From Bacteroidota bacterium (lineage in GTDB: Bacteria; Bacteroidota; Ignavibacteria; UBA10030; BY39): a stretch of DNA of 64,000 nucleotides. Shown piece by piece: positions 18,497 through 35,184 of this stretch; the first letter of the stretch is position 1, and every line of letters starts with the position of its first letter. The notes beneath the pieces were generated by a model. That model was given only the letters and a program-made list of their open reading frames with translations, was not told where the DNA came from and did not search any database. The stretch lies in the NCBI GenBank assembly GCA_030682385.1, contig JAUXOG010000043.1:34473-98472 (forward strand). The letters are read 5' to 3'. Position numbers and translations under genes: made by a program.

Positions 18497-18498
18497 GT

Positions 18499-18525
18499 GC
18501 TGGCTAACCAGACGCTAGCTGACAG
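18499..18525 (+). mobile_element. Truncated attC (left arm only)
   Basis: GGCTAAC-CAGACGCTAGCTGAC resembles ACCTAAC-CAGTCGCTCAAGCAGAC of the attC at 28770 (minus). No right arm was found. Confidence 0.6.
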
Positions 18526-18644
18526 CAGCGAAACAGGTTTGTAAAAAGTCTGTTTGTAAATTAAAAAGGACAATAACGACTAAAGCGACTTTTAACTGTC
18601 CTTACTGTCGTTTAAGTCCTACAGAATATCATAGGTACGGCAAT

Positions 18645-19358: not shown

Positions 19359-20720
19359 TTATTCTTTCCTCTCCATCCCGTACTTTTTCATTTTAGTATA
19401 AAGATTACTTCTCTCGATATCCATCGCTTCGGCGGTTTTGCTTATATTCCAATTGTGAATTTCGAGCATTCGCTTTATAAAAGCAGCTTCCGATCTGTCC
19501 TTAAATTCTTGATATGTTTTGCTCGTTGCAATTATGTCGTCTGTGGCAGTTCCTTTTGTTAATCCCGTCGGCTCAAGCATTTCAACTTCGACCGTGTTGC
19601 CTGGAGTAAGAATGATAAGTCGCTCAACAATATTTCTTAGTTCGCGAATGTTACCACTGTATTCAAGCCCTTTCAAGTAATTCAATGCCCGCTCGGAAAA
19701 TTTTTTTGGCGTGATTCCGTACCGGGTACATATATCATCTACAAATGATTTTGTTAAAACCGGAATATCATCTCTTCGCTCGCGTAAAGGAGGAACATGT
19801 ATCGGAATAACATTCAGACGGTGGTATAAGTCTTCTCTGAAATTGCCTTTCTTAATTTCCTCAATCAAATTTTTATTTGTTGCTACAATTACTCGAACGT
19901 CAACAGAAATTAATCTATTGCCGCCGACTCTCTCAATCTTTCCTTCTTCGAGTACGCGTAAAACTTTTGCTTGGGCAGCTAAACTCATGTCGCCGATTTC
20001 ATCGAGGAAAATTGTGCCGCCGTCGGCTTGCTCGAATTTACCAATCCGCTGAGCAGTTGCACCGGTGAAAGAACCCTTTTCGTGTCCGAACAATTCCGAT
20101 TCAATCAAATCGTGAGGAATAGCCGCACAGTTTACTTCGACCATTGTTTTTGCGGAACGCTTGCTAAAACGATGGATTGCTTTGGCTACTAATTCTTTGC
20201 CGGTTCCGTTTTCGCCGGTTATCAGGACTCGTGTGTCGGTCGGAGCTATTCGCTCAATCAGCGATAATATCTCTTTAAGCTTCTGGCTCTCTCCCAGAAT
20301 ATTATCTTTACCTTCAAGTTTCTGACGGATAGTTTCTATTTCGGCGGTTAATATTTTATGATCAAGAGCGTTACGAAGTGTAACAAGCAATTTATCTCTA
20401 TCGAGTGGTTTGGTTAAAAAATCGAAGGCGCCTAACTTTGTTGCTTCGACCGCAGTTTCGATTGTGCCGTGACCGGATATCATTATTATGGGCAAATCGG
20501 TATGCCGGCTTTTTATAGTTTGTAATACTTCGATGCCATCCATCCCCGGCATTTTTACATCGAGAAGAACTGCATCAATGCGATTTTCAGGATTATCTAA
20601 TATTGCAAATCCTTTCGGCCCATCTTCAGCGAGTTCTACTTCATACTTTTCGTAATTTAGTATCATTTTAACTGCGTCGCGGATACTCTTCTCATCGTCA
20701 ATTATTAAGATTGTTTTCAT
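19359..20720 (-). CDS. Sigma-54-interacting response regulator (NtrX/NtrC family)
   Basis: Receiver domain (LLDVKMPGMDG), AAA+ domain (GENGTGKE, ESELFGHEKGSFTGA, FLDEIG) and Fis-type HTH. Confidence 0.95.
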   Translation of the reverse strand: MKTILIIDDEKSIRDAVKMILNYEKYEVELAEDGPKGFAILDNPENRIDAVLLDVKMPGMDGIEVLQTIKSRHTDLPIIMISGHGTIETAVEATKLGAFDFLTKPLDRDKLLVTLRNALDHKILTAEIETIRQKLEGKDNILGESQKLKEILSLIERIAPTDTRVLITGENGTGKELVAKAIHRFSKRSAKTMVEVNCAAIPHDLIESELFGHEKGSFTGATAQRIGKFEQADGGTIFLDEIGDMSLAAQAKVLRVLEEGKIERVGGNRLISVDVRVIVATNKNLIEEIKKGNFREDLYHRLNVIPIHVPPLRERRDDIPVLTKSFVDDICTRYGITPKKFSERALNYLKGLEYSGNIRELRNIVERLIILTPGNTVEVEMLEPTGLTKGTATDDIIATSKTYQEFKDRSEAAFIKRMLEIHNWNISKTAEAMDIERSNLYTKMKKYGMERKE

Positions 20721-20787
20721 AATTAATTAGTCGTTCGTTAATCTTTTTTTGTAAATTATCATTTGAACTTATGCTATTTACTACCTA

Positions 20788-21486
20788 CTACTTACCGTTT
20801 AAAACATCCGATGGTTTTGCATTCTTGTTTTTCATCAGCAACAAGCCAAACTTTTGTCCATCTTTATTTGCTTTCATATCGCGTTCATCGTAATTACCAT
20901 CCTTAATATATCTATCTTCAATCTTTTCTACAAACAAGGAATACCTTTCAGCTAATCCCTCCGATTCAAAAGCATAAATTAAAAACGCCGAACCGAATAT
21001 GTGCTGTAATTTATCTTTGTCGCCATACGGGTACGAGGGAGAGTTGTTGTAAAAATGTGTAGGAAGATTAGACGTTCGCTTTCGAAAATCTTCTTTTGTT
21101 TCATTTGTTAAAGGAATATAAAGATTGATCAGCGGGATTTTTATACCGAGTGTATAATGGTCGAGTGTAGCGATTGTACAAATTAGAAGAGATATTCCGG
21201 TATTGCCGCGTGTAAGTTCTTTAGCTTTTTGATAAACCGAATCAACGGCCGCCAAATCACCATTCTGTTTCTTGAAGTTTAAGAATTCATCATTCCGAAT
21301 AAATGATTTTAATTCACTGATATTCTGTAAAAGAAAAGGAGGGAAAAGTGTTACCATCGCCTCGAACGCGGAATAATCAGAACTACTTGAATCCTGCATT
21401 TGAGTTGAAGCAAAATTTATTTGTGGATAACTCAACGCGACTAAAAAAAAGAGAATATAACTCCTGTTAAGCAAATACCGTCTCAT
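20788..21486 (-). CDS. Hypothetical exported protein
   Basis: 232 aa ORF with an N-terminal hydrophobic segment and a DKDKLQHIFGS motif; co-oriented with its neighbours. Confidence 0.75.
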   Translation of the reverse strand: MRRYLLNRSYILFFLVALSYPQINFASTQMQDSSSSDYSAFEAMVTLFPPFLLQNISELKSFIRNDEFLNFKKQNGDLAAVDSVYQKAKELTRGNTGISLLICTIATLDHYTLGIKIPLINLYIPLTNETKEDFRKRTSNLPTHFYNNSPSYPYGDKDKLQHIFGSAFLIYAFESEGLAERYSLFVEKIEDRYIKDGNYDERDMKANKDGQKFGLLLMKNKNAKPSDVLNGK

Positions 21487-21489
21487 AAA

Positions 21490-21685
21490 AACTCAATTCC
21501 TAAATCTCGACGAGTCGGGTCGTCGACCGAATACCTGCCCGCCGCTTCGCTTTGGCAGGCGGGTCGAAACTCGAAACAATTCATAAACACGAATTTCAAA
21601 AAATACATTCTCCAATTCTCCATTATGCCATTAATCCATTTGTTCATTGAGTCAATGAATAAATCTTCCAATGATCCAATCTTCC
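21490..21685. repeat. Intergenic cluster of GC-rich mini-palindromes and imperfect 8-mer tandem repeats
   Basis: CGACGAGTCGGGTCGTCG, CCTGCCCGCC...GGCAGGCGGG, and a (TCCAWTNN)n run at about 21611-21683. Confidence 0.7.
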
Positions 21686-21687
21686 GT

Positions 21688-23334
21688 TTATGTCTGAATT
21701 ACTCCCGGATTGAAGCGTGGAATATTCGGATTATTAGCTGCAATCCCAAGCGTGTAAGAAATAATTTTACGAGTATCGATAGGATCGATGATATCATCGA
21801 CCCATAATCGGGCTGCGGCATAGAGCGGGTCGAGTTGGCGATTATAGCGTTCCTGGATTTCGGAAAGCATCTTCTGCTTTTCCTCCTCGGAAATTTTATC
21901 TTTGTTACCACCTAAACGGATTGTCAGGAGTGTCTCGCTTGATTGTTTTCCTCCCATTACAGCGATTTGAGCAGTGGGCCAAGCAAAAATAAAACGAGGG
22001 TCGTAAGCTTTACCGCACATCGCATAATTTCCGGCGCCGTAGCTATTCCCGGTTATAAAAGTAATTTTCGGCACTACACTGTTAGCAACTGCATTTACCA
22101 TTTTAGCACCATCTTTAATAATGCCGCCTTGTTCTGAACGGGTCCCGACCATAAATCCCGTAACATCCTGAAAGAAAATAAGCGGAATATTTTTTTGATT
22201 GCAATTCATTATGAACCGTGTGCCTTTATCGGCGCTGTCGCTGTAAATTACACCACCAAATTGCATCTCGCCTTTTTTGGTTTTTACAAGTGCACGTTGA
22301 TTTGCCACGATTCCGACCGCCCAACCATCTACGCGAGCGTAACCTGTGATTATCGTTTTGCCGATGCCGGCTTTGTATTCATCGAACGAATCATCATCCA
22401 CGATACGCGATAAAATCTGGTAAGTGTCGTATGGTTTTGTCCGGTCTTCAGGAAAAATACCATAAATTTCTGACGGGTCGAGATTCGGCAGCTTCGATGC
22501 GATCCTATCAAATCCGGCTTTGGGTGTCTGTCCAAGTTTACTAATGATATTGCGGATTGTTTCCAAGCAAACTTCATCGTTCGGCATTTTATAATCAGTA
22601 ACGCCGCTTATTTCGCAGTGCATAGATGCGCCGCCTAATTCTTCGATGTCGGCATCTTCGCCGATGGCTGCTTTGACGAGAGCTGGTCCTGCTAAGAATA
22701 CGCTTCCGGTTTTTTCTACAATCATGGCTTCGTCGCTCATTATCGGAAGATAAGCACCGCCTGCAACGCAAGGTCCCATGATTGCTGAGATTTGGACAAT
22801 TCCCATCGACGACATAACGGCATTATTGCGGAATATTCTTCCGAAGTGTTCTTTATCCGGAAAAATTTCATCCTGCAGAGGGAGAAAAACACCAGCCGAG
22901 TCAACGAGGTAAACTATAGGTAAGCGGTTTTCTATTGATATTTCCTGCGCGCGAAGATTCTTTTTGCATGTAATCGGAAACCAGGCGCCGGCTTTCACTG
23001 TCGCATCGTTAGCAACGATTACAACATCTCTGCCGTGAATTTTTCCGATACCGAAAATTGTTCCTGATGCGGGTGCGCCGCCATATTCGTTATACATATC
23101 GTAAGCGGCAAATAATCCTATTTCTAAAAAGTAACTGCCGGGGTCGATTAGTTTTTCGATTCTTTCGCGGGCTGTAAGTTTATTCCGTTTGTGGTGTTTT
23201 TCAATATTTTCTTTCCCACCGCCGAGTTTGATGATATCGGCTTTCGCTTTTATCTTCCTGACTAAATTTTTGTTAAAGTCATCGTTGCGGTTGAAGCCGT
23301 TGTCGTGTGTTATTTCAGTGCCTAATTTTGCCAT
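21688..23334 (-). CDS. Acyl-CoA carboxylase carboxyltransferase subunit (methylcrotonyl-CoA carboxylase beta-like)
   Basis: KLTARERIEKLID, ANDATVKAG, DSAGVFLP, GPCVAGGAY and SYGAGNYAMCG. Confidence 0.93.
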   Translation of the reverse strand: MAKLGTEITHDNGFNRNDDFNKNLVRKIKAKADIIKLGGGKENIEKHHKRNKLTARERIEKLIDPGSYFLEIGLFAAYDMYNEYGGAPASGTIFGIGKIHGRDVVIVANDATVKAGAWFPITCKKNLRAQEISIENRLPIVYLVDSAGVFLPLQDEIFPDKEHFGRIFRNNAVMSSMGIVQISAIMGPCVAGGAYLPIMSDEAMIVEKTGSVFLAGPALVKAAIGEDADIEELGGASMHCEISGVTDYKMPNDEVCLETIRNIISKLGQTPKAGFDRIASKLPNLDPSEIYGIFPEDRTKPYDTYQILSRIVDDDSFDEYKAGIGKTIITGYARVDGWAVGIVANQRALVKTKKGEMQFGGVIYSDSADKGTRFIMNCNQKNIPLIFFQDVTGFMVGTRSEQGGIIKDGAKMVNAVANSVVPKITFITGNSYGAGNYAMCGKAYDPRFIFAWPTAQIAVMGGKQSSETLLTIRLGGNKDKISEEEKQKMLSEIQERYNRQLDPLYAAARLWVDDIIDPIDTRKIISYTLGIAANNPNIPRFNPGVIQT

Positions 23335-23352
23335 AAGATATTTGCTTTTTTT

Positions 23353-23958
23353 TTATTTTAAAAGTTTCATTGATTTTGATTTTAACAAAGAAGTCATTTG
23401 GATAATTGCGATGCCATTCAATTTAGATAATCTTTCTGATTGAGTTAAAGCTTGGCGAATAAAAATCGAATTAAGACTTTCAATAGCAAGTGTACGTTGT
23501 AGATTCCAACTTAATGATTGAGTTTTAGCTTCTTCGAGCTTTAGCCGTTGGAATTCTTTTAATAGATAAAGCTTAAACTCTGCACTTACCCAAGCTGCAA
23601 ATTCAAAAGCGATATCTTGATGAGCGAAAGTACCACCGGTATTGCCGGCTCTGGAAATAATACCGATGGCATTTGTTGCCTCAATCCATTTTGAAGGCGA
23701 AAGTACAAACGAATTACTACCGGCTTCGTACATAAAGGAGTCGAATTCGACCCCTTTGAAATTTGGATTATGAAGCTTTTCCCATAATCCTAAAAACTCA
23801 ATAGTCGTTCTTGACCTCATCCAGTTTTTTACCACATCTTTCGGTTCATTTTTATTTTTATAACGAGCAATATCTGTTAGCGAAATGTAGTCTTCGCTTT
23901 TCTGACTAGTGAGCGATATTTCAGTTCCTTTTACATTTAATTTAGTATTCTTTTTCAT
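23353..23958 (-). CDS. KilA-N domain protein, apparently with an internal deletion
   Basis: DYISLTDIA, NWMRSRTTIEFLGLWE and GGTFAHQDIAFEFAAWVSAEFKLYL. The C-terminal part seems to jump from WNLQRTLA directly to IESLNS. Confidence 0.85.
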   Translation of the reverse strand: MKKNTKLNVKGTEISLTSQKSEDYISLTDIARYKNKNEPKDVVKNWMRSRTTIEFLGLWEKLHNPNFKGVEFDSFMYEAGSNSFVLSPSKWIEATNAIGIISRAGNTGGTFAHQDIAFEFAAWVSAEFKLYLLKEFQRLKLEEAKTQSLSWNLQRTLAIESLNSIFIRQALTQSERLSKLNGIAIIQMTSLLKSKSMKLLK

Positions 23959-23969
23959 AATGATATCTA

Positions 23970-24043
23970 ACTAAATTATTGTTAAGTCCTCGGTGCGGTT
24001 GAAGCCGTTGTCGTGTGTTATTTCAGATCCAAGTTTTGCCATA
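23970..24043 (-). repeat. Degenerate copy of the first ~24 codons of the carboxyltransferase gene
   Basis: Aligns to 23261-23335, including the identical stretch TGCGGTTGAAGCCGTTGTCGTGTGTTATTTCAG. Confidence 0.92.
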
Positions 24044-24078
24044 GGAATATTTTAGATTGATGATTTGGGATTTATGAA

Positions 24079-24370
24079 TTATGAATTAATTAATAATTCT
24101 TTACCTTTAAGTGTGGTTATATATTTTTGATTTCTACTCCTGGGTTTTTCAGGATTTAATAGAGCAAGTAATTTTATTTTTAACAATGGGTTAATATATT
24201 TGTTTCTGAATTTAGTTCGATTTTTCCACTTAAGTTGAACCATTAGCTCGAGTAATGATTTTGGTTTATTACAAAAAGCTAATATTATCGTTGCCTCTTT
24301 CACATTAAATTGTGGTTTAAATGTTTGTCGGTCCCAACTTAGTCCCATCTTAGTCCCAACTTGGTCCCAT
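24079..24370 (-). pseudogene. C-terminal HTH fragment of a Fic/ATP-binding-type protein
   Basis: NRTKFRNKYINPLL...PEKPRSRNQKY, preceded by 12-bp linker repeats (TGGGACYAAGWT). No N-terminal domain. Confidence 0.65.
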
Positions 24371-24451
24371 TTCTGTGAAATATGCAGAATGAATTATAGA
24401 AAATCAAACAATTCGATATTCAATCTTGAACGAACAATGAATAATGAATGC

Positions 24452-24777
24452 TTAAATTATTTCAATAGCTCTTTCGCTCTTTAATACAGATGAAAGCATA
24501 GCAACACCTTGCTCTGTAAACGCATAAGGAGGGTACCGTAATCCCTTTTGATCCGATTTGGACATCACAGTTTGTGATCTCCAAATTTTAAATTCTTTTT
24601 TTGAAAGCTGAAACATAAAATCTTCAGGGAATCTTCTGATATTCCTTCTTACGGCTTGTTTTAGTGCACGCGTTTCTACGTTGTAAAGAACAGCCAAATC
24701 TCTATCGAGAATTACTTTCTTATTACCAGAATTTTATTTAATACGCTTTCTGAAGGTACTAATGCTTTGTGTGTCAT
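24452..24777 (-). pseudogene. ORF6N-domain gene, frameshifted and 3'-truncated
   Basis: Paralog of 25372-25701 with a 7-nt deletion near 24720. Retains [20 protein letters not shown] and [16 protein letters not shown]. Confidence 0.88.
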
Positions 24778-24806
24778 AGATAAAGTTTTGTTTCTAGAAT
24801 AACGAT

Positions 24807-25199
24807 TTAAGTTTTATCTATCTGTTGTAATTTTTTTATTTCACTTTCAATTTTTTCAAATGCGCTATTCGGATTACCAAGCAATTCTTCATTTGTAATT
24901 CTTATAAACTTAATCCCAAATTCTTCAATATATTCTTGACGATCTTTGTCGTAATCTTTTTGTCCCGGTAAATCGTGAACTTCACCATCAATCTCAACAG
25001 CTAGTTTAATTTCGGGGGCATAGAAGTCAATTACAAATTTATCTACGGAATACTGCCTTCTGAATTTAACGCCGAGTAATTGTCTATTGCGCAGATGAAT
25101 CCAAATAATATTTTCACAAAAAGTTTGGTTTTTACGGAGTTGGCGACGTTTTCCTTTTTCTTCTTGATTGTTAAAATGTTTTGTCATGGTCCCATTCAT
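24807..25199 (-). CDS. DUF559 (Vsr-like endonuclease domain) protein
   Basis: RQLRKNQT, LRNRQL.GVKFRRQY, FVIDFY and EIDGEVH. Confidence 0.9.
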   Translation of the reverse strand: MNGTMTKHFNNQEEKGKRRQLRKNQTFCENIIWIHLRNRQLLGVKFRRQYSVDKFVIDFYAPEIKLAVEIDGEVHDLPGQKDYDKDRQEYIEEFGIKFIRITNEELLGNPNSAFEKIESEIKKLQQIDKT

Positions 25200-25200
25200 T

Positions 25201-25254
25201 CGACCTCACTCCTACCCCTCTCCTTTGAAAGGAGAGGGACTTAGGGTGAGGTTG
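25201..25254. repeat. Nested palindrome immediately upstream of the DUF559 gene
   Basis: CGACCTCAC...CCCTCTCCTTT-G-AAAGGAGAGGG...GTGAGGTTG. Confidence 0.85.
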
Positions 25255-25371
25255 CCTCATTGTCGGTGATTTATGAATTATGATTTTGTGAAATATGTAA
25301 AATGAATTATAGAAAACCAAACACTTCGAAATTCAATATTCAATCTTGGAAAAACAATGAATAATGAATGT

Positions 25372-25701
25372 TTAAATTACTTCAATAGCTCGTTCACTCT
25401 TTGGAACGGAAGAGAGAATTGCAACGCCTTGTTCTGTAAATGCTATTGGGTTCGCACCACCAAAAAAACTTTTTGATAGTATCACATTTTGTGATACCAT
25501 TTTATTAATCTCCTTCCCAGATAAAATGAACATGAAGTCGGTAGGAAATCTTCTATTATTTCTACGAACAGCTTGCTTTAAGGCGCGGGTTTCTACGTTG
25601 TAAAGAACAGCCAAATCTCTATCGAGAATTACTTTCTGATTTCTTATTATAAGAATTTTATTTATTACGCTTTCTGAAGGTATAATCGATTTTTCTGCCA
25701 T
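25372..25701 (-). CDS. ORF6N-domain protein, 3'-truncated
   Basis: [30 protein letters not shown] and [12 protein letters not shown]. Ends at the same point as its paralog. Confidence 0.85.
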
Positions 25702-25930
25702 TAGTTTTGCTTTTTGCTAATATGTTTCTTAAAAGGACATTAAGGACAGCAACGACTTTGTATTGGCAGAAGGCAATAGAAATAATTAGCCAGCCACCAT
25801 TGCTAAACTGTACTAAAGTAAATTGAAAACTAAATTTTAACTATCTGCTACAATATATAATTTTTGTTGGAAATATGAAAGACGGTAAGAACCCTTCCTA
25901 ATTACTTTACTGGCGATCTACTAACTCATG

Positions 25931-26339
25931 TTACGCAAAATAGTGTTCGGGGTTAAAAATTCGAAGACCTAAATCTGAATCTCGAAACAAATTCGAATTC
26001 CTAAAATCTATTTTCTTAATATTTGCCAATGCAAGATATGCCCCATCACAAATGGCAGCAGCTTCTTCGTACGAAATATTTGCCGGCTTTATTGCGATTG
26101 AACCTGTTTCGGGAATACAAATGTATTCCGCGTGCGCTCCAAAACGCGAAGTTGTTAATCCAAAAACCCGGTCGCCGTTTTTAAATGTTTTAACATTTTT
26201 TCCAACTGATACAATCTCACCAGCCAACTCACTCCCTAAAATCTTTCTTTTGGGTTTAAAGAGACCATTGATTAATCTGATGATAAGAGGATGTTCGATT
26301 TACTGTTGTTGCGTGTATTGTATAAACAATTGCCTTCAT
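25931..26339 (-). pseudogene. MDR-family NAD(P)-dependent alcohol dehydrogenase remnant
   Basis: MKAIVYT|IHATTVNRT from the ATG at 26339, then a frameshift into GLFKPKRKILGSELAGEIVSVG...GAHAEYICI...EEAAA; truncated at a repeat tract near 26010. Confidence 0.85.
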
Positions 26340-26518
26340 AAGTATTCCTTCAAGATTGCTTTGATTCGAGCGTCTTCAAATAAAAAATGCGCTATTCCTT
26401 TACCATCAAAGACAAACGCCCCGCCGTCCTCTACGCTTACACCTGCACTGCCCAAAGCCTCACCCATTTCGGCTAAAGCCCCTGGACGATTTTCCAAACG
26501 TACGGCTAAATCTCTCAT
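26336..26518 (-). pseudogene. ACT-domain protein fragment
   Basis: LENRPGALAEMGEALG.AGVSVE ACT motif; only 60 aa. Confidence 0.7.
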
Positions 26519-26537
26519 TCTATTTTCTCCTAAGTTT

Positions 26538-26999
26538 TTAAATTTGCTGAATGGTTATTTTTGTTTTTACAGAGCTTGCAATAAAACATTTCTCGTGTGC
26601 CAAATGATGTAATTCATCCACCTGTTCTCGTGATAGGGTAGTCTTACTGTTAAAAATCACCTTCGGTTTCAAGGTAACTTTCGTCATTGCTAACTTCCCA
26701 TCTTCATTTTTCCCTAAAATTCCTTCGGCACTATCTTCATAACTCTCGACAATGTAGTTTTTCTCGGCTGCAATGGACAAAAACCATAACATATGACAAC
26801 TTGAGAGCGAAGCAATAAATGCCTCCTCTGGGTCTACGGCAGATGCATTGGACATTGGAAGTGGTACAACGTGTGGCGAGGAAGATGCGGCTAACTCAAT
26901 TCCGCCATCAAATATCCAAGTGTGAAATCTGCTGTATTTATTATCAACAAAAACTTCGTCTAAATTCTTTTCCCAAAAAACCGTAACGTTATACGACAT
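26538..26999 (-). CDS. OsmC/Ohr-family protein
   Basis: DPEEAFIASLSSCHMLWFL and AHEKCFIASSV (both conserved Cys). Confidence 0.93.
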   Translation of the reverse strand: MSYNVTVFWEKNLDEVFVDNKYSRFHTWIFDGGIELAASSSPHVVPLPMSNASAVDPEEAFIASLSSCHMLWFLSIAAEKNYIVESYEDSAEGILGKNEDGKLAMTKVTLKPKVIFNSKTTLSREQVDELHHLAHEKCFIASSVKTKITIQQI

Positions 27000-27044
27000 C
27001 TTTATTCCTCAAGTTTGAATAATATAATTGTTGTGCCATAAAGC

Positions 27045-27120
27045 GGCTAACGGCGTTGCCGATAAACAGCTTTTCCCGATTTCTTTTATTGTGGGCGTCC
27101 GCTTGATTGGCGGGTTAGGC
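27045..27120 (-). mobile_element. attC site 3 (76 bp), ending the CBASS cassette
   Basis: On the minus strand: R'' GCCTAAC (contains the cap15 TAA stop), CCGCCAATCAAGCGGAC, ..., R' GTTAGCC; imperfect inverted repeat. Confidence 0.82.
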
Positions 27121-27705
27121 AACCTTTATTTTATTTAATTTAATTTCTCCAATGGTTTTTCGTGAAGTCCAATATTCACCTTCCATACTAGTTACGTTGA
27201 AACCAGAAAACTGTAATAGAGTTGTACCATAATGAATTTGACTTCTCTCTCTAATACTAGTTTTAGGTATGTTTATATATGAATAATATAGTTGTTGCAA
27301 TCCACGCTCTTTATCAATATCAAAAGATGCCGCAACACTAAAACTATTGCTTTCATTTGATTGTATTTTAATTTGTGTATTAAAAAATGTCTGTGTGATC
27401 TGAATTGAAATGGAGATTGGATTTTGTATTTTATCTTGCCAAGTTGAGATTATTATCCCCTCCCAATTACCAGACAAATCTGGGAAAGGAACAAGCCAAG
27501 GATAAAAAATCTTTATTTTCCAAAACCATTTAACAAATAAGGTCCATATTATTAGGTTAATTGAAATAGTTGTCGAAATGTCTTTAAAAGCAGTATCAAA
27601 TTTAATAGATGATAAATTCTGATTTAGAAGAAATAATATGATGTAAGTTCCAAAAGCTAATCCTAATATAGTAGAACCAAACGCTCTAAGATTATACTTT
27701 ACCAT
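27115..27705 (-). CDS. cap15: CBASS effector Cap15 (SMODS-associated 2TM, beta-strand-rich domain)
   Basis: Two N-terminal TM segments; PDLSGNWEG, ITQTF, YYSYINIP, IHYGT and GEYWTSRKTIG; 1 nt downstream of the CD-NTase. Confidence 0.9.
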   Translation of the reverse strand: MVKYNLRAFGSTILGLAFGTYIILFLLNQNLSSIKFDTAFKDISTTISINLIIWTLFVKWFWKIKIFYPWLVPFPDLSGNWEGIIISTWQDKIQNPISISIQITQTFFNTQIKIQSNESNSFSVAASFDIDKERGLQQLYYSYINIPKTSIRERSQIHYGTTLLQFSGFNVTSMEGEYWTSRKTIGEIKLNKIKVA

Positions 27706-27706
27706 A

Positions 27707-28597
27707 CTAAAACTCCAAATAATTATAAGAAAGTATTACAAAATTATTAACATCTTCTTTAGTCCATTTTCTACCAGAATGAAATAAATATAAGAGTTCA
27801 GAAACTTCGCCCCATTTTTTGCATTTATCTTGTTCTTCTGTTGATCCATATAAATAGACAAGTGAAGATTTTACTCTTTCTGTCCAACTATCATTATCAT
27901 TAAAAATAGTATCAGGAATATTCCACATCAGACTTTCAATTAAAAATGAAGTGATATGGTCGTTTGTGAAAGAACCATCTTCAACCATTTTATTTTTTAA
28001 TTTCTTGAAAACTCTAACTAATCTTTTAAACCTTTTGCTAGTATTCGAATTTTTAGTTTTACTATTTTCGAGGTGTTGATTTGGAAAATTAACAACCATC
28101 TTATAATCATCGCTAAAGAATTTTGTGCCCTCGACATATGAACCATCAATAGAATATCGATGATAATTAAAGGTGGGTACAACATCAGCTTGAATCCTAT
28201 TAGTATTACCTTTAACTGTGATACATTTATTTTTCCGTTCAATAGAATCACGGCCAAATTTATTGACTAAAGCATTTTCAACAGAATCCTTAAACGTCGA
28301 AAACTTATAATCACTTGGCGAGTTAAGCTGGAAATCACCTCGATTTTTTCCTTCAGGTAAATCGAAGAAAAAAATATCCATTAATCGTACATTAATATCA
28401 ACGTCACTATCTAACCTAATATTAGTATCGTTCGCATAAGATCCTTGACCAAATATTTGTATTTCTTTTTCTTTTAATACAGAATCGGCCTTTATAGCTT
28501 CACTTATCATTTTTTGTGCATTGGCTAATTTTGTCTCTTCAGTATCACTTGGAGGTTTACGCCAATTATTAAATGTTTCTTCAGATATTTTACCCAT
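27707..28597 (-). CDS. cGAS/DncV-like nucleotidyltransferase (CD-NTase, CdnE-like)
   Basis: QGSYANDTNIRLDSDVDINV (GS...DxD), ADVVP, NFPNQH, FKRLVRVFKKL and SFLIESLMWNIP. Confidence 0.93.
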   Translation of the reverse strand: MGKISEETFNNWRKPPSDTEETKLANAQKMISEAIKADSVLKEKEIQIFGQGSYANDTNIRLDSDVDINVRLMDIFFFDLPEGKNRGDFQLNSPSDYKFSTFKDSVENALVNKFGRDSIERKNKCITVKGNTNRIQADVVPTFNYHRYSIDGSYVEGTKFFSDDYKMVVNFPNQHLENSKTKNSNTSKRFKRLVRVFKKLKNKMVEDGSFTNDHITSFLIESLMWNIPDTIFNDNDSWTERVKSSLVYLYGSTEEQDKCKKWGEVSELLYLFHSGRKWTKEDVNNFVILSYNYLEF

Positions 28598-28607
28598 AAT
28601 ATTAGTT

Positions 28608-28770
28608 GCCTAACGGACTGGAGCTAAGCTGCGTTGCAACGTTCCAGCGGGTTGATTAAAGTTTTAAATTTAAAATGCTGTTTCATAACGTAAGTTGTAT
28701 TTAGAAATCTCAACACTCAAAACTTTTGCGCGTCGGCGGTTGCAACGTCTGCTTGAGCGACTGGTTAGGT
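28608..28770 (-). mobile_element. attC site 2 (163 bp)
   Basis: On the minus strand: ACCTAAC CAGTCGCTCAAGCAGACGTTGCAAC ... GTTGCAACGCAGCTTAGCTCCAGTCC GTTAGGC. R''/R' fit consensus and the arms pair with extrahelical bases. Confidence 0.9.
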
Positions 28771-28774
28771 TGTT

Positions 28775-29383
28775 TTAGTAATTGAGAGGACCATACTGTG
28801 GATCATATATACCATAACCGAATACTTTGTTTTCTCTTAAATAAAATTCGACTTGATATTTTTTAAAAGAATAAACTCGAACTGTTCCATCTTTGGATTT
28901 TGTAATATCCGAAGGCTCACCAAAATAATCTTTTATACTTTTAAGATCATAACTGTGAAATTGACGATTAAGCAACTTTGGAGAGTCATAATCCCAAACC
29001 GAACAAGTATATATTATGGCGGATACTTTATCATTTTTGAAATACACTTCATAAAATATTTTTCGCCACGTATATTCTGTCTTATCATAAAACCAACTTG
29101 AGTTTATTTCATCATAAAAATGGTTGTCACCTTTGATAAACTTTACGTCCTCTTTTGAAGAGCCTAAGTTTATATCCCAAAATGTTGAAGCGAGCGTTGG
29201 GTATTGGAAATTTAAACTGGGAAGTATAAATTTATATATACCAAATCCTGATAAACCTAAAACGATAACAATAATTATCCATTTTGCTATTTTCTTCCAA
29301 TTCCATCGGTCTTTTGTAGAATTAAAAAGTAACACCAAACCGATAATTAAAGCTGACAAAAATATTGATAGACCAAGATTCAT
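28775..29383 (-). CDS. Hypothetical membrane-anchored protein (cassette 2)
   Basis: 202 aa with two N-terminal TM segments and an aromatic-rich soluble domain; bounded by attC sites. Confidence 0.8.
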   Translation of the reverse strand: MNLGLSIFLSALIIGLVLLFNSTKDRWNWKKIAKWIIIVIVLGLSGFGIYKFILPSLNFQYPTLASTFWDINLGSSKEDVKFIKGDNHFYDEINSSWFYDKTEYTWRKIFYEVYFKNDKVSAIIYTCSVWDYDSPKLLNRQFHSYDLKSIKDYFGEPSDITKSKDGTVRVYSFKKYQVEFYLRENKVFGYGIYDPQYGPLNY

Positions 29384-29404
29384 AAATTCCTCTTGTTCAA
29401 AACA

Positions 29405-29629
29405 ACCTAACGGCGTTGCGCCTAACCCGCCGCCCCAAGCAAGGAAGCCAAGCTAAAACGGAATGCCAAAGATTAAACAAACTGCACTTAACTTGCATCA
29501 GCAAGTGCAGTTTGTAAGTTAATTAATTAGAATGAACACTTAGAACAAAATGCCGAACAAAAACCAAACGCCAAAAATTATAAATTCGCCAAACCAAAAT
29601 GGCGGTCGGCGTTGAGGCGCTGGTTATAT
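29405..29629 (-). mobile_element. attC site 1 (225 bp, unusually long)
   Basis: On the minus strand: ATATAAC CAGCGCCTCAACGCCGACCGCC ... GGCGGCGGGTTAGGCGCAACGCC GTTAGGT. Long central spacer with an internal hairpin at 29477-29515. Confidence 0.82.
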
Positions 29630-29635
29630 GCGTTT

Positions 29636-30331
29636 TTATAATAGCCTTACGAACTCATTTGGTAAAGCAACTAATACCCATTCCGTAGAAATTTTATTAT
29701 CATTCAATACTTCAAATGTCCTAACACCGTTATCTAAGGAAACCAATTTTAAAATTATCTGATTCCATCCTTGCTTAAATATAACTTTGTTATACTGCGT
29801 AATAATTGTTCTTTCGTATTGAGGATACATTTGGTCTTTTAACAATACGGTCCATTTACCAGTTACTTCAGTCGATCGGTCGAAATAGTAATAATGAATT
29901 TGATAGTCACCAACAATCGAATTTATATCAAAACCATTTGTACTACCACATTGGATTGGGAAAGAAATTCTTTCATAATGTTCTAATGTAAGTGAAATAA
30001 ATTTTGCAGTAGTATCACTAAATTGAATACTATCTTTCATCTCAAAATAAATGCTATCCTCTCTTTCAACCTTTAAGTAATTATGAAGCACTTCACTTGG
30101 TGGATTTGGCAAATTTATTTTGAAACTTCCATTACTTAAAATCTTAGTATGTGCTAATAAATGTTCAACAGAGTCAATTGAGACTCTCCAGAGAATGCTA
30201 TCTCCATTTGCAGGATTCCAATTAATAAATTGACCGTTAATTTCATTTGGAGAATTGCTAATAGGATCTACCGACTTTTCCGTACATCCTATTAAAACGA
30301 CAAGAAGAATAAAAACTATTATTTTTTTCAT
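29636..30331 (-). CDS. Hypothetical lipoprotein (cassette 1)
   Basis: Likely start MKKIIVFILLVVLIG-C (lipobox) at 30331, inside the cassette boundary at 30348. Confidence 0.8.
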   Translation of the reverse strand: MKKIIVFILLVVLIGCTEKSVDPISNSPNEINGQFINWNPANGDSILWRVSIDSVEHLLAHTKILSNGSFKINLPNPPSEVLHNYLKVEREDSIYFEMKDSIQFSDTTAKFISLTLEHYERISFPIQCGSTNGFDINSIVGDYQIHYYYFDRSTEVTGKWTVLLKDQMYPQYERTIITQYNKVIFKQGWNQIILKLVSLDNGVRTFEVLNDNKISTEWVLVALPNEFVRLL

Positions 30332-30341
30332 AACATTAAGC

Positions 30342-30362
30342 ATATAACTATTAATTATACTG
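30342..30362 (-). other. attI-like recombination site B heading the cassette array
   Basis: CAGTATAATTAATAGTTATAT on the minus strand: an L-like GTATAAT, a 5-nt spacer, then the GTT core. No attC-type hairpin upstream; matches site A. Confidence 0.68.
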
Positions 30363-30524
30363 CCATATAGCGTGCTATCAAACAGGCAGCGTGTGTGATA
30401 GATTCCATATGTTTTATTGTTTTTATTTTGTTTTCCATAATTTGAGCGGGCTATCACTCATATCATTATAGGATGTTATCCAGCGGGCTTTTTACACCCA
30501 TCACTATCTTTAAAATTTGAATAT

Positions 30525-30553
30525 AATATAGAATTAAAATAATTCAAACTCAA
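30525..30553 (-). promoter_or_regulatory. sigma70-like Pc-type promoter facing the cassette array
   Basis: TTGAGT-N17-TATATT on the minus strand. Confidence 0.55.
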
Positions 30554-30657
30554 ATTAATAATCCATTACTCCATCCGCCTTAGGCGGATTCAATCTTTCA
30601 GTCTTTCAATCTTTCCATCACTCCAGAAGCAAAATGTTCTCTCAACTACTCATCTAC

Positions 30658-31821
30658 TTATTTTAGCAACTCTCTCGATATCACCAACTTCTGTATTTCA
30701 GAAGTCCCTTCGCCGATTGTTACAAGTTTAACATCGCGGTAAAATTTTTCGACAGGGTAGTCTTTTATAAATCCGTAACCACCGTGAATCTGGATCGCTT
30801 CGTTCGTTACCATAACTGCAACCTCAGACGCATAATACTTTGCCATTGAGGATTCTTTTATAACTTCTTCGCCTTTGTTTTTCAAATAAGCAGCTTTATA
30901 AGTTAATAGTCGAGCTGCCTCAATTTGTGTTACCATCTCGGAAAGTTTCCATTGAATCGCTTGAAACTCTGAAATCGGTTTTCCGAATTGCTGTCGTTCT
31001 TTCGAGTATTTCAAACTTGCCTCGAATGCGCCTTGTGCAATTCCAAGTGCGTTTGCGGCGATGCTGATTCGTCCGCCATCTAAGATAGTTAAAGCTTGAT
31101 GGAATCCTTTGCCTTCTTCGCCGATTAAGTTCTCTATCGGAATTGCACAATTGTCGAATGCAATCGCAGCCGTATCGCTCGAGCGCATACCTAATTTATT
31201 CTCTTTTTTGCTTACGATAAATCCGGGCGTATCGTTTTCCACGATGAATGCAGAGATGCCCTTCTTACCTTTCGACTTGTCGGTTATCGCAAGCACCACG
31301 GTTACTTTTCCAACTGAACCATGAGTGATAAAATTTTTACTGCCGTTGAGTATGTAAGAATTTCCGTTGCGCATTGCTGTCGTTTTCATACTTCCGGCGT
31401 CGCTGCCTGATGAAGGTTCGGTAAGTGCCCAGGCGCCTATCTTTTTACCGGTTGTTAAATCGGGTAAATATTTTTTCTTTTGTTGTTCGTTGCCGAATGT
31501 GTAAATATGGTTTGTGCATAAGCTGTTGTGTGCGGCAATTACTAATCCCATTGATGGATCGGCTTTGGAAATTTCCTCAATAATGGTAACATATTCAAGA
31601 TAGCTGAAACCCGCACCACCATATTCTTCAGGAAATATAACACCCAAGAATCCTAATTCGCTCATCTTCCGGACGATATCGAAAGGAAACTCCTGCGATT
31701 CGTCGTACTTCATAATAACGGGTTTAATTTCTTTTTCTCCAAAATCACGTGCAAGCTGTTGAACCATTCTCTGGTTTTCAGTCATCTCGAATGTCGGTAT
31801 TGTTTGTTCGGTTGAATTCAT
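30658..31821 (-). CDS. Acyl-CoA dehydrogenase (short/branched-chain type)
   Basis: [45 protein letters not shown] and IGEGTSEIQ. Confidence 0.96.
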
Positions 31822-31859
31822 ACGCGTTATTCCTTTTAGTATAGTTTGAATTTATATGA

Positions 31860-32807
31860 TTATTTCGTAAAATCCTGTAATAACTTTTCTGCTAAGTCGT
31901 AAGGTGTTGAATCTTTACGAATTACATTTTCTATATTCAATAACAAATATTTTTCGCGAGCTTCATTCCAGAATTCTATGTGAAGTTTTTCTTTCACGAG
32001 TTCGTGAATGCGGTTTACCATTCGTTTTTGTCTTTTCCCTTTTAGTCCAGATGAATCCTCCAAATATTTTCTATGATGAGAAATGGTTTCTTCAATCTTA
32101 TCAATCCCTTTTCCTTCGCTCGCAACGGTTTGAATAACATCCGGCTGCCAGCCATCTTTTTTAGTTTTGAAATTTAATATCATCTTTATAGACATCACTG
32201 CCTGATCGGCTCCCGCACGGTCGGACTTGTTCAGCACAAAGAAGTCGGCAATTTCCATCAGACCGGCTTTCATTGCCTGGATTGAATCGCCGGATTCGGG
32301 GACAAGCACAACGATAGTTGTATCGGTAGCTCCTGCAATATCAAGCTCCGATTGCCCGACGCCAACAGTTTCCATCAAAATTATATCAAAACCCGCAGCG
32401 TCTAAAATATCAGCAGCTTCGATTGCTTTTTTGCTTAATCCACCAAGACTTCCGCGCGAAGCCATACTGCGAATGAAAACACCTTCGTCCAAATCAATAT
32501 CAGTCATACGAACCCGATCGCCAAGCAGCGCACCACCTGTAAACGGACTGGTCGGGTCAACTGCGATGACTCCTACTTTTAATCCTTGCTTGCGATATGC
32601 GGCGGCTAACTTATTTGTGATTGTGCTTTTGCCGGCGCCCGGAGGACCGGTTATTCCTATACGGTATGCAACACCGGTTTTATGATAGATTTCTTCCAAC
32701 AGCAACCGTGAGTTTTGATGTTCGTTCTCGACCATCGAGATTCCGCGCGCAATTGCAACACGATTGCCCGAGAGGATTTGGTTACTTATGTTTGATAGAT
32801 GATTCAT
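31860..32807 (-). CDS. meaB: Methylmalonyl-CoA mutase-associated GTPase
   Basis: GITGPPGAGKST, AVDPTSPFTGGALLGDRVRM, ETVGVGQSE and NKSD. Confidence 0.95.
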   Translation of the reverse strand: MNHLSNISNQILSGNRVAIARGISMVENEHQNSRLLLEEIYHKTGVAYRIGITGPPGAGKSTITNKLAAAYRKQGLKVGVIAVDPTSPFTGGALLGDRVRMTDIDLDEGVFIRSMASRGSLGGLSKKAIEAADILDAAGFDIILMETVGVGQSELDIAGATDTTIVVLVPESGDSIQAMKAGLMEIADFFVLNKSDRAGADQAVMSIKMILNFKTKKDGWQPDVIQTVASEGKGIDKIEETISHHRKYLEDSSGLKGKRQKRMVNRIHELVKEKLHIEFWNEAREKYLLLNIENVIRKDSTPYDLAEKLLQDFTK

Positions 32808-33732
32808 TATAAATTAACTTGTCTTTAAAAAATTCTACAGTTAAATTCAAACCTTCTTCAATCTTATACTTAGGTTCCCATGTTAATTCTTCTTCAATTT
32901 TTCTTGTATCTAAAACGCTTCTGAGCTGCTCACCTTTCTTTGCTGGTGCGTGTAACTCGTCGCAGTTTGAATTTGTAAGTTTTTTGATTTCGTTAAACAA
33001 TAAATTAACATCTGTCTCAATGCCGGTTCCGATATTGAAAATATCCGATTTGCCATATTCTAACGCGAGTAAGTTTGCACGTACTACGTCGCTGACAAAA
33101 ACATAATCGCGTGTTTGCTTGCCGTCGCCGTTAATTTGCGGCTGACCGCCTTCTAACATTTTTTTAGCAAATATTGCAATAACGCCTGCTTCACCGTGCG
33201 GGTTTTGGCGCGGTCCATACACATTCGCATAACGCAGGACGACATAGGGCAATCCGAAAACTTGTTCATAATAGAACAGGTATTTTTCAGTTGCTAATTT
33301 TGTTATTCCATAAGGCGAAAGGGGACGAACAGGGTGGTTCTCGTCAGCGGGGAAGTAGTCCTGTTCACCGTAAATCGCGCCGCCTGTTGAAGCAAATATG
33401 AATTTCTTTACATCAAACTTTTTGCAGTTTTCTAATAAATTCAATACACCGACCACATTAACAGATGCATCGAACATCGGGTCATCTACAGATTTACGCA
33501 CATCCATTTGTGCAGCGTGATGATTAACGATATCAAACTTCTCCTGCTCAAAAATATCTTTTACTTTATCATCACGAATATCGAGTTGGTAAAATTTTGC
33601 TTTCGGGTTGATATTTTCTTTCACTCCCATCGATAAATTGTCGATTATAACAACCGAATGATCGGCATTTATGTAAGCATCTGTTACGTGGGATGCGATG
33701 AAACCCGCACCACCTGTTACTAAGATTTTCAA
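32782..33732 (-). CDS. NAD-dependent epimerase/dehydratase (UDP-glucose 4-epimerase-like)
   Basis: VTGGAGFI, SPYGITK (YxxxK), NVYGPRQ and GDGKQTRDYV. Confidence 0.92.
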   Translation of the reverse strand: MKILVTGGAGFIASHVTDAYINADHSVVIIDNLSMGVKENINPKAKFYQLDIRDDKVKDIFEQEKFDIVNHHAAQMDVRKSVDDPMFDASVNVVGVLNLLENCKKFDVKKFIFASTGGAIYGEQDYFPADENHPVRPLSPYGITKLATEKYLFYYEQVFGLPYVVLRYANVYGPRQNPHGEAGVIAIFAKKMLEGGQPQINGDGKQTRDYVFVSDVVRANLLALEYGKSDIFNIGTGIETDVNLLFNEIKKLTNSNCDELHAPAKKGEQLRSVLDTRKIEEELTWEPKYKIEEGLNLTVEFFKDKLIYNESSIKHK

Positions 33733-33765
33733 AATTATTATCCTTTCTTATAAATCTATTTATTT

Positions 33766-33890
33766 GTGCCAAAGGCACATCAGCCTTCGGTTGACATTTA
33801 TCCAACGATTCAATGACTCCAACGACTCTAATGACTCTATGACTCAATCATCCAATACTCCAATACTCCATCATTCCATTATTCCAATTG
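33766..33890. repeat. Mini-palindrome followed by 9-mer and 8-mer imperfect tandem repeats
   Basis: GTGCCAAAGGCAC; (AAYGACTCY)n; (TCCAATAC/TCCATYAT)n in the purD-epimerase spacer. Confidence 0.75.
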
Positions 33891-33906
33891 TCAAATATTC
33901 ACTTCC

Positions 33907-35184
33907 TCATCTGCTTAACGCCTTCTTCCCAATATCACTCCGGTAATATGCGCCGTCGAAAGTAATTTTTTCAACAACACGATAGGCGCTGTGAATTGTT
34001 TCTTCAAAATCATACGAATTACCGAGAGCAGTAATCCCGAGAACTCTTCCGCCGGCTGTAACAATAGCATCATTTTCAAATATAGTTCCTGAATGAAAAA
34101 TCAAAACGTTATCACTGATCTTATCAAAACCGGTTATCGGTTTACCCACTTCGTAAGAATCAGGATAGCCGCGGGATGACATTACAACACACACAGTTGA
34201 AATCGGTTTTATTCTCAATTCTATCGTACCGATTTTATTGTTAATTGAAGCAAGCATCAATTCGACGAGGTCGGTTTCGATTAGCGGAAGCACAACCTGA
34301 GTTTCAGGATCACCGAAGCGGCAGTTGTATTCAACCACGCGAGGTCCGGTTTCTGTAAGCATCAAACCAAAATATAAACACCCTTTGAATGGTCTCCCTT
34401 CTTTTTTCATTCCATAAATTGTTGGCTCAATGATAGTGCGTTTAATTTCATCAAGTATGCTTTCGTCGGCAAACGGAGTTGGTGCATAGGCGCCCATACC
34501 ACCTGTGTTTTTACCGAGGTCGCCGTCTAAAATTTTTTTATAATCCTGTGCGGGTGGAAGTATTACGAAATCCGTTCCATCAGTAATTGTTAGTATCGAA
34601 AGTTCTTCGCCGGTCATAAAATCTTCGATAACTATTTTTTCACCAGCAGTTCCCAAGATCTTTTTTGTAAATAAAGCGTCCAGAATATCCAACGCCGCAT
34701 CTTTAGTTTCGCAAATCGTAACACCTTTACCCGCTGCTAATCCATCGGCTTTAACGACGATAGGCACAGGTGTTTCGTTAATATAGCGTTCGGCTTCAAA
34801 ACGATTTTCGATGCTGAACGATTTGAAGTTTGCGGTTGGAATATTGTTCCCCACCATAAATTCTTTTGCGAACGTTTTGCTGCCTTCAATTTCGGCGGCT
34901 GATTTTGATGGTCCGAAGATTTTCAAACCAACTGCTTCAAACTCATCGACAACACCGTCAATAAGTGGTTGCTCAGGACCCACAACAGTGAAATCTATTT
35001 TGTTATCTTTTACAAACTTGATAAGTGAATCGAAGTCGTTCGGTTTGATAGGAACTAACTCAGCTATCTCGCCGATGCCCGCATTGCCGGGGGCACAATA
35101 TATTTTGGTAACCAGCGGACTTTGCCTGATTTTCCAAACCAATGCGTGCTCGCGTCCGCCCGAACCTATGACTAATACTTTCAT
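33907..35184 (-). CDS. purD: Phosphoribosylamine--glycine ligase
   Basis: GSGGREHAL, VKADGLAAGKGV, NTGGMGAY and EYNCRFGDPETQ. Confidence 0.98.
   Translation of the reverse strand: MKVLVIGSGGREHALVWKIRQSPLVTKIYCAPGNAGIGEIAELVPIKPNDFDSLIKFVKDNKIDFTVVGPEQPLIDGVVDEFEAVGLKIFGPSKSAAEIEGSKTFAKEFMVGNNIPTANFKSFSIENRFEAERYINETPVPIVVKADGLAAGKGVTICETKDAALDILDALFTKKILGTAGEKIVIEDFMTGEELSILTITDGTDFVILPPAQDYKKILDGDLGKNTGGMGAYAPTPFADESILDEIKRTIIEPTIYGMKKEGRPFKGCLYFGLMLTETGPRVVEYNCRFGDPETQVVLPLIETDLVELMLASINNKIGTIELRIKPISTVCVVMSSRGYPDSYEVGKPITGFDKISDNVLIFHSGTIFENDAIVTAGGRVLGITALGNSYDFEETIHSAYRVVEKITFDGAYYRSDIGKKALSR

Follow-up and report, generated by a model that had tools for sequence, protein, structure and literature searches.

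A three-cassette chromosomal integron array with a predicted two-gene CBASS, probably left by loss of the integrase gene, in a groundwater Ignavibacteria genome

Among the possible origins of clusters of attC sites lacking integrases (CALINs), the portion of Cury et al. (2016, PMC4889954) drawn on here lists loss of the integrase gene, intI, and reports a recognisable intI pseudogene near only 15 of 279 such clusters. The same portion puts on record integrons in which the integrase gene is co-directional with the cassettes, including in Treponema, and gives as criteria for a sedentary integron either presence in all genomes of a species or more than 19 attC sites. The sections used of Neron et al. 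(2022, PMC9024848) record integrons in Chlorobi and Ignavibacteriae. In the available parts of Darracq et al. (2024, 10.1101/2024.07.02.601686), sedentary chromosomal integrons store anti-phage systems, 73% of them in Vibrio and never with more than two components, and cyclic-oligonucleotide-based antiphage signalling systems (CBASS) appear only as a domain match; mobile integrons are likewise described as encoding phage defence in the part seen of Kieffer et al. (10.1101/2024.07.02.601719). Here we describe a cassette array in a 64,000-nucleotide stretch (the window) of contig JAUXOG010000043.1, from a groundwater Bacteroidota genome of the lineage Ignavibacteria; UBA10030; BY39 (GCA_030682385.1, here G000; 140 contigs, 3.38 Mb, 99.69% complete). 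Positions refer to the window unless another contig or locus is named.

The region, which lies on the minus strand (Table 1), is very probably a three-cassette chromosomal integron array that lost nearly all of its intI gene, and thus a CALIN formed by integrase loss, because an integrase remnant and an attI site stand at its head, an intact IntI is encoded at the same spot in a genome of the same genus (G019), and none is found in G000. It is like the CALINs of Cury et al. (2016, PMC4889954) in having three attC sites, no intI within 4 kb or genome-wide, and cargo mostly of unknown function; unlike most of them, as far as the portion drawn on describes them, its origin can be seen from what the locus keeps, 21 codons of intI and the attI, and from the intact intI that a congener has there. 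It is also like co-directional integrons, since intI, attI and attC run in one direction (12 of 12 strong attC matches in 17 Ignavibacteria loci are on the intI strand), and differs from them in that only the last 21 codons of intI are retained. An initial annotation of this DNA had recognised an integrase-less cassette array, which is borne out by the three attC sites and by the lack of any match over the cut-off of the IntI family model TIGR02249 (265 bits) in window or genome; the attI, the upstream integrase remnant and the CBASS content of cassette 3 lay outside what it had covered.

The remnant aligns to the C-terminal 21 residues of the IntI encoded at four public Ignavibacteria loci. 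In tblastn searches of the window it shares 14 of 21 residues with the IntI of L041 (E = 3.9e-4) and matches those of L042, L043 and L039 with E values of 0.001-0.006. The stretch around the catalytic tyrosine is decayed and the remaining gene is gone. A cheap-gap alignment of the intergenic region with G019 produced spurious small blocks, and a shorter reading of the remnant, as 7 codons and a stop, was replaced by the 21 codons, which are of another IntI subtype.

Elsewhere in the genome, the best scores against TIGR02249 are 140.9 and 138.8 bits, and these belong to Xer-like genes without the IntI-specific segment (model positions about 180-232). A tblastn search of G000 with three IntI proteins returned these Xer-like genes (about 35% identical) and two remnants, one of 23 codons on contig C22 and the other that in the window, and nothing else. 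A partial recombinase at the end of C121 was considered as an IntI and rejected as a paralogue of the Xer-like gene on C102. We note that the tyrosine recombinase family members at C64 6880-7701, C102 16329-17075 and C121 8-250, about 35% identical to IntI, have a 125-aa N-terminal extension and lack the IntI-specific segment, and that the C102 gene seems broken, its C-terminal end lying in a different frame about 290 nt on, with a similar orphan end on C91.

Comparison with related genomes provides the context for the loss. IntI scores over the cut-off in 74 of 201 sampled genomes of the order. In G019 an intact 321-aa IntI (429.7 bits against 265) is encoded directly after the orthologue of the acyl-CoA dehydrogenase gene that flanks the window array; the two dehydrogenase genes are 85% identical in DNA sequence (L024 1616-2829 in G019), and the G019 array has at least seven attC sites in a row, reaching the orthologue of the window's carboxyltransferase gene. 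In two further relatives, G001 (same family) and G034, an island occupies the interval between the same two genes without an intI there: G001 has 11 intI codons and a hybrid site before the same OsmC gene, and G034 has attI sequence only. The three intI deletions, in the window, G001 and G034, have different endpoints. Cassette arrays are present at the same locus in four related genomes of different species, and are small, with three to at least seven sites and differing content; in 34 other loci checked, the dehydrogenase and carboxyltransferase genes are not near intI. In the G001 hybrid site (L029 3825-4080) the attI behind the 11-codon remnant runs directly into an attC L'' arm, which suggests a deletion between attI and an attC.

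The sequence at 30363-30345 is identified as a predicted attI core because the same core follows intact intI genes in relatives. With few changes this 19-nt core lies 100-180 nt past the stop codon of the intact intI in both G019 and G001, and the window copy is identical to that in G019. The core follows intI in 10 of 17 public Ignavibacteria IntI loci and is absent from all 10 loci examined in other families of the order, and it has two matches in the window at up to three mismatches against 0.02 expected. Both the core and its two upstream variants were derived in this analysis and not taken from a paper. Cassette 1 begins after the attI core, not after an attC. In G019, the bases after the core complement, for 10 nt as read by eye, the R'' box of an attC at the end of another contig, which suggests that this contig continues the same array. 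The attI also contains a candidate cassette promoter, TTGATA-16-TATAAT, which is the best sigma-70-like site of the region, the sigma-70 pattern being one that may not be this lineage's promoter type.

A second attI-like core, TCAGTATAAATAATAG followed by TTA (two mismatches), is present on the plus strand at window position 17436 and is followed by a 336-aa open reading frame (ORF; 17486-18496). An R''-like GGCTAAC at 18502-18508 complements the start of this unit in 10 of 11 bases; the arm profile described below called no attC in the unit (17436-18620), and a four-helix-bundle gene comes next (18645-19223).

The three attC sites have R''/R' boxes of 7 nt that can pair, ATATAAC/GTTAGGT in attC1, ACCTAAC/GTTAGGC in attC2 and GCCTAAC/GTTAGCC in attC3, and the AAC/GTT triplet pairs are invariant or nearly so in the eight sites of G000 and in 21 sites of other genomes. 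They have a common layout on the minus strand, which is the top strand of the sites: a 7-nt box ending in AAC, a short spacer, an L'' arm, a variable middle, an L' arm, a second spacer of 8-9 nt and GTTAG. The L'' arm reads nnT-C-AAnnnn-A-C, in which the C and the A are unpartnered, and the L' arm ends in TTAnn. These bulged bases, G and T on the bottom strand, are six positions apart in attC2 and attC3 and seven apart in attC1, where one additional bulged G stands between them. Unpartnered G and T on the bottom strand agree with the extrahelical bases of classical attC sites, whose canonical spacing on that strand is about six positions. All 21 IntI-adjacent sites of other genomes keep the AAC/GTT boxes and the bulged bases, the bulged C included.

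In their R'', L'', L' and R' boxes, unpaired spacer and two extrahelical bases, attC1-3 are like classical attC sites (e.g. aadA7) and the homogeneous repeats of Vibrio super-integrons, and, as in those super-integrons, one attC family is common to many cassettes. They are unlike classical sites in size, with 225 nt in attC1, 245 nt in its paralogue and about 188 nt in the array sites of relatives, and in R stems extended to 9-13 bp. The variable part of attC alone is given as 20-100 nt in the portion used of Cury et al. (2016, PMC4889954).

Two models were used to score the sites. A covariance model (R1) was built from four attC sites of G000, in part attC2 and attC3, and in the 17 public Ignavibacteria loci with intact IntI all 12 of its matches with E < 0.01 lie downstream of intI on the same strand; its performance on the long attC1 type is poor (E = 0.08 when the genome was searched). 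A two-arm weight profile was derived from the arms of 21 attC sites downstream of intact IntI, from other genomes only and none from G000. Over the whole 3.38-Mb genome this profile gives attC1 76.0, attC3 66.6 and attC2 59.4 bits (ranks 1, 3 and 4), against a maximum of 29.6 bits in the reversed genome. The sites show neither the background scores nor the misplaced extrahelical bases that the initial annotation had named as grounds for doubt. The 21 training sites covary, with 86.9% of cells paired against 76.3% when shuffled (0 of 500 shuffles as high) and compensatory changes in six of nine L-stem pairs; slid controls are far lower. No further attC was found in 23300-27044, and an Rfam scan of 20000-34000 returned nothing relevant, only three weak chance matches with E of at least 2. 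A degenerate 21-nt pattern allowing three mismatches (232 matches, mostly spurious) and a loose structural regular expression (368 matches against 791 in the null) were abandoned.

When the bottom strand is folded with DNA parameters, the minimum free energy (MFE) structure of attC2 is canonical and leaves G148 and T141 unpaired (-23.8 kcal/mol, z -3.2). The attC1 site as a whole folds very stably (z -5.5), and none of the 2953 AAC/GTT candidates on that contig strand has an arm duplex better than that of attC1 (-20.9 kcal/mol); the attC2 arms rank fourth (-18.0 kcal/mol). Arm-duplex energy was dropped as a sole criterion for attC, since chance pairs reach -18 kcal/mol and attC3 falls outside the top 25.

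Elsewhere in G000, C22 and C36 carry two further attC sites each (those on C22 being paralogues of attC1 and attC2, 79% and 82% identical), C56 and C39 carry a single site each, another is truncated where C23 ends, and C43 gives a weaker match; further attI-like cores are found on C22, C39 and C56 in addition to that at window 17436. C22 48745-51430 (L009 2750-5430) is a second beheaded integron, with the last 23 codons of a G019-type IntI, an attI core and two cassettes.

The ends of the cassettes provide a separate line of evidence. Each cassette begins with the complement of the R'' region of its own attC, and on the minus strand the end pairs are GTTATATGC (30348-30340) and GCATATAAC (29631-29623) for cassette 1, GTTAGGTTGTTT (29411-29400) and AAACAACCTAAC (28775-28764) for cassette 2, and GTTAGGCAAC (28614-28605) and GTTGCCTAAC (27123-27114) for cassette 3. 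All six strings reported in the initial annotation were found in place, and its run lengths of 9, 12 and 10 nt are right for cassettes 1 and 3; with the G of GTT taken as the first base, complementarity is exact over 9, 13 and 10 nt, the run of cassette 2 being one longer. As an internal control, the same R'' boxes match the R' boxes that adjoin them in the array for only 4, 6 and 5 nt. When all GTTA...TAAC pairs 300-2500 nt apart were considered over the whole window and both strands, with inverted pairs counted twice, 16 of 5364 reached at least 9 nt, and six of these 16 are the three cassette pairs. A lone 9-nt match is not rare (five other distinct pairs in the window), and the 13-nt run of cassette 2 is unique among the 5364. 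The three units abut, each beginning at the GTT of the preceding unit, and three tiling units with runs of this length are far beyond chance.

Such complementarity is the footprint of a cassette that was formerly a circle, and the proposal that it marks the integration of circular cassettes is supported. The accompanying proposal of recent acquisition is not. Own-end runs are 11, 11, 10, 12, 12 and 5 nt in the G019 array, 9 and 13 nt on C22 and 7 nt on C36; with the window's three, 10 of 12 cassettes of the lineage have runs of at least 9 nt, including five of six in the array of the IntI-bearing congener. A long own-end match is thus a general trait of this lineage's cassettes, with or without an integrase, and because such runs are usual also in an IntI-bearing array, perfect matches give no age for the acquisition. 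As for the suggestion that the cassettes are still excisable, the attC sites look intact and excision would be possible in principle, but no IntI in the genome reaches the family cut-off. No excision or circle junctions were seen in the contigs of public sequencing runs, which cannot reveal rare junctions.

Table 1. Features of the integrase-less cassette array and its flanks (window coordinates).
Feature	Coordinates	Strand	Description
Acyl-CoA dehydrogenase gene	30658-31821	-	Pfam; conserved chromosomal flank upstream of the platform
Integron integrase remnant	30469-30531	-	Last 21 codons, LYYIQILKIVMGVKSPLDNIL, then two stop codons; tblastn with IntI
attI region	30345-30468	-	Core shared with sites after intact intI
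Candidate cassette promoter (Pc), TTGATA-16-TATAAT	30354-30381	-	Inside attI; sigma-70-like, 11/12
Predicted attI core	30363-30345	-	GCAGTATAATTAATAG followed by TTA; putative crossover between G30348 and T30347
Cassette 1	29411-30347	-	937 nt; ORF 29636-30331, 231 aa, lipoprotein-like N-terminus
attC1	29405-29629	-	225 nt
Cassette 2	28614-29410	-	797 nt; ORF 28775-29383, 202 aa, N-terminal membrane helices
attC2	28608-28770	-	163 nt
Cassette 3	27051-28613	-	1563 nt; predicted two-gene CBASS
CD-NTase gene, cassette 3	27707-28597	-	296 aa; Pfam SMODS, PADLOC PDLC00801
Cap15 effector gene, cassette 3	27115-27705	-	196 aa; Pfam Cap15_CD_rec, PADLOC PDLC00702
attC3	27045-27120	-	76 nt
Distal junction, TTAGCCGCTTTA..., and OsmC-family gene	26538-27050	-	Conserved flank past attC3, not an attC-bounded cassette

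The products of cassettes 1 and 2 match no protein family over its cut-off and only unnamed clusters in a protein atlas. Cassette 3 carries two genes that nearly abut and that are predicted to form a minimal type I CBASS, with a CdnE-type cyclase (CD-NTase) and the membrane effector Cap15. The cyclase matches the PADLOC model PDLC00801 with an E value of 1.2e-116 and aligns over its full length with ClCdnE (PDB 7x4a, E = 2.5e-115), including the GS and DxD motifs (GQGSYAN and DSDVDI), which we take to be the catalytic motifs. The effector has two membrane helices and a cyclic-dinucleotide receptor domain, and matches Pfam Cap15_CD_rec (1.1e-27), the PADLOC 2TM effector model PDLC00702 (6.7e-66) and PDB 7n34 (5.9e-7). 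Enzymes of this CdnE group synthesise cyclic dipyrimidines, and Cap15 acts by disrupting the membrane. The full-length cyclase alignment, the receptor domain and the membrane helices are all as in the ClCdnE/Cap15 CBASS (PDB 7x4a, 7n34); for the pair described here the nucleotide product and the defence activity are predictions, and its nearest cyclase relatives found, eight on metagenome contigs, are 43-52% identical. Among genome contigs, with one genome per species, there is no close relative of the cyclase, and none of the eight metagenome contigs has an attC of the window type beside it. A role in anti-phage defence is probable for cassette 3. In being a compact two-gene defence system within one cassette it is like the systems in the available parts of Darracq et al. 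(2024, 10.1101/2024.07.02.601686), and it is unlike their Vibrio-dominated set in being a CdnE and Cap15 CBASS, in an Ignavibacteria-like groundwater genome, and in an integrase-less array.

The most probable scenario is that the region represents the head and first three cassettes of a co-directional ('inverted integrase') chromosomal integron of a kind present in Ignavibacteria, in which intI, attI and the cassettes are read alike and from which intI would have been deleted down to its last 21 codons. Each cassette would have entered as a circle, by IntI-catalysed recombination between the G and the TT of GTT, and a cassette start that is the other half of the cassette's own R' box and complements its own R'' would follow from such entry. 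The three cassettes, which have no promoters of their own, would presumably be transcribed from the attI promoter, and the CBASS of cassette 3 would be expected to kill a cell infected by phage. As the genome has no integrase, we infer that the array is frozen and would move again only with IntI supplied in trans.

A number of observations weigh against this interpretation. The fold of attC3 is at background (z -0.84), its canonical structure (-3.6 kcal/mol) being less stable than an alternative (-8.4 kcal/mol), and fold energy by itself would not pick out this site. In attC1 the whole-site MFE structure is not the canonical hairpin (-34.7 kcal/mol against -27.3 when forced), as the long middle forms local hairpins. 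The bottom-strand folding recommended in the initial annotation is therefore canonical for attC2, in part for attC1, and not for attC3. The eight sites of G000 taken alone show little excess of pairing (77.9% against 74.3% shuffled; 38 of 500 shuffles as high), and the profile test is partly dependent, its 21 training sites having been picked by R1, which was itself partly trained on attC2 and attC3. Sigma-70-like sites are not enriched in the region (23 against 19.0 +/- 4.1 in shuffles). The remnant, and the region from it to the core, are of another subtype than the IntI and attI of G019, and at other places in G019 and G001 there are heads of the window's subtype that have attC sites after them but no integrase. 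Because the subtypes differ, deletion of the same gene in place would be too simple an account, and the history of the locus appears to involve more than one simple deletion. Finally, an unassembled intI is possible in a genome of 140 contigs, as the IntI genes of relatives are often at contig ends, and the contiguity of the array is not fully matched in an independent assembly, as described below.

Contigs of public runs were compared with the window, the best-matching run being X1, a groundwater metagenome that may be the source of the genome. The two ends of each cassette are on a single X1 contig with no differences, those of cassette 1 on record 8 and those of cassette 2 on record 6, and the junction of dehydrogenase, remnant, attI and cassette 1 is likewise on one contig with no differences. 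Record 6, however, runs 1600 nt past 29414 into a different attC arm and into sequence that is absent from the G000 assembly, and positions 29415-29502 are uncovered by X1 contigs; adjacency of cassettes 1 and 2 is uncorroborated because of this divergence and gap, and may reflect a join made in assembly or just one of two variants in the population. It could be, then, that the cassettes are real and that their order and contiguity in the window are an assembly artefact, cassettes having been skipped or mis-joined at repeated attC sites. X1 contigs break at every attC, attC1 and attC2 have their paralogues on C22, and the small contigs C23, C36 and C56 have ends within or close to attC, all of which would fit such an error. 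Yet the single contigs that carry each cassette's ends and the head junction are independent of the G000 assembly, overlaps of 30 and 23 nt join X1 contigs 6, 5 and 1 across attC2, and a gap in contig cover proves nothing, and we consider a mis-assembled order rather unlikely. A joint in X1 inside attC2 sits at a palindromic word and was taken as an artefact, and the listed joints, which have short sides (20-30 nt) and low stringency, were left uninterpreted.

The same data bear on the possibility that the array is not frozen, an IntI still shuffling the cassettes in the population, whether encoded by the organism itself and missed in assembly or binning, or by relatives living alongside it. 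The number of contigs, the position of IntI genes at contig ends in relatives and the variation of cassette content at the locus among four related genomes are compatible with this, as is the X1 copy of cassette 2, which has no differences over 676 nt and is joined to another upstream attC arm. Copies of cassette 1 at least 99% identical occur in runs X2, X5 and X6, which have no cover of cassettes 2 and 3; in X2, a sediment metagenome, a 761-nt contig agrees with 29611-30344 at all but 4 of 734 nt (99.5%) and then departs from the window, its last 27 nt beyond the cassette start being a misfit. In X2, relatives of attC1 are covered to a depth of about 1000-1200 and cassette 1 to one of 6, which fits a large cassette family sharing that site. 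These patterns are hints of mobility in the wider population and not proof of activity in G000. Against continued shuffling, no IntI over the cut-off and only short remnants are found at 99.69% completeness, and the depth of cassette 2 in X1 (9.99, with neighbours at 9.44-10.8) makes two full-depth contexts unlikely; rare junctions would not be visible in contigs. We regard an array that is still being shuffled as improbable.

A broader and doubtful proposal is that several attI heads, belonging to two sequence types, are scattered through genomes of this family, every head having a promoter and cassettes of its own, with a single integrase at most, or none, to serve them all. In its favour, at least three heads in G000 (window, C22 and C39) keep homology to the integrase 3' end or to the region after intI, in addition to the core-like sequences at window 17436 and on C56, and G019 and G001 carry extra window-type heads beside a single IntI of the other type. 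On this view, attI heads would outlive their integrases as expression platforms, and cassettes might pass among heads and co-resident strains via IntI acting in trans, which would explain the second context of cassette 2 in the same sample.

That the repeats are instead some other intergenic palindromic repeat, similar to repetitive extragenic palindromic (REP) sequences or miniature inverted-repeat transposable elements (MITEs), and flank the genes by chance is very improbable, for despite the length of the sites (up to 225 nt), the X2 depth of attC1 relatives and the lack of an Rfam match, sites of the same family lie solely downstream of true IntI genes and on the same strand in the 17 loci examined, keep the AAC/GTT boxes and bulged bases in all 21 cases, have own-end complementarity in 10 of 12 cassettes, and here follow an attI core and an intI remnant.

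As an integron array left by intI loss, the element is real, well preserved and ordinary, and belongs to a well-known kind. It is a clean and well-anchored case of how a CALIN would originate, intI having been deleted and the docking site, promoter-like element and cassettes kept. The predicted CdnE and Cap15 CBASS would join a short list of two-gene defence systems carried as single cassettes, beyond Vibrio and in a little-studied groundwater lineage. Literature found under integron and Ignavibacteria includes nothing on such arrays by title, supplementary tables, which may list CBASS, being outside that search. attC sites of 225-245 nt exceed the default size limit of the standard detection tool, and such arrays may be under-counted.

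The flanks of the array are shared with relatives to differing extents. Past attC3, window 27071-26318 is 97% identical to G001, which has the same junction after an attC, and beyond the OsmC gene there are gene fragments and small phage-like genes and no further attC. The fragments at 25931-26518 comprise a truncated ACT-domain gene and an alcohol dehydrogenase N-terminal portion, with 89% identical fragments in G001. On the other side of the locus, an inverted-repeat, MITE-like element with ends like CTGAAGTTACGCAGAAT lies between the dehydrogenase and intI genes in G019 (L024 1420-1550), and elements with such ends recur on several G000 contigs, e.g. C29 near 33415.

Among other rearrangements in the window, we note an 87-nt direct repeat (87% identical; 23258-23343 and 23967-24052) which is a copy of the carboxyltransferase gene's 5' end and lies on either side of a KilA-N domain gene (23353-23958); the arrangement looks like an insertion that duplicated or replaced the gene start. 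An ORF6N-domain gene and the non-coding stretch downstream of it are also present in two copies (75% identical; 24371-24777 and 25284-25701), with a DUF559 endonuclease-like gene between the copies and relatives on contigs C26 and C66.

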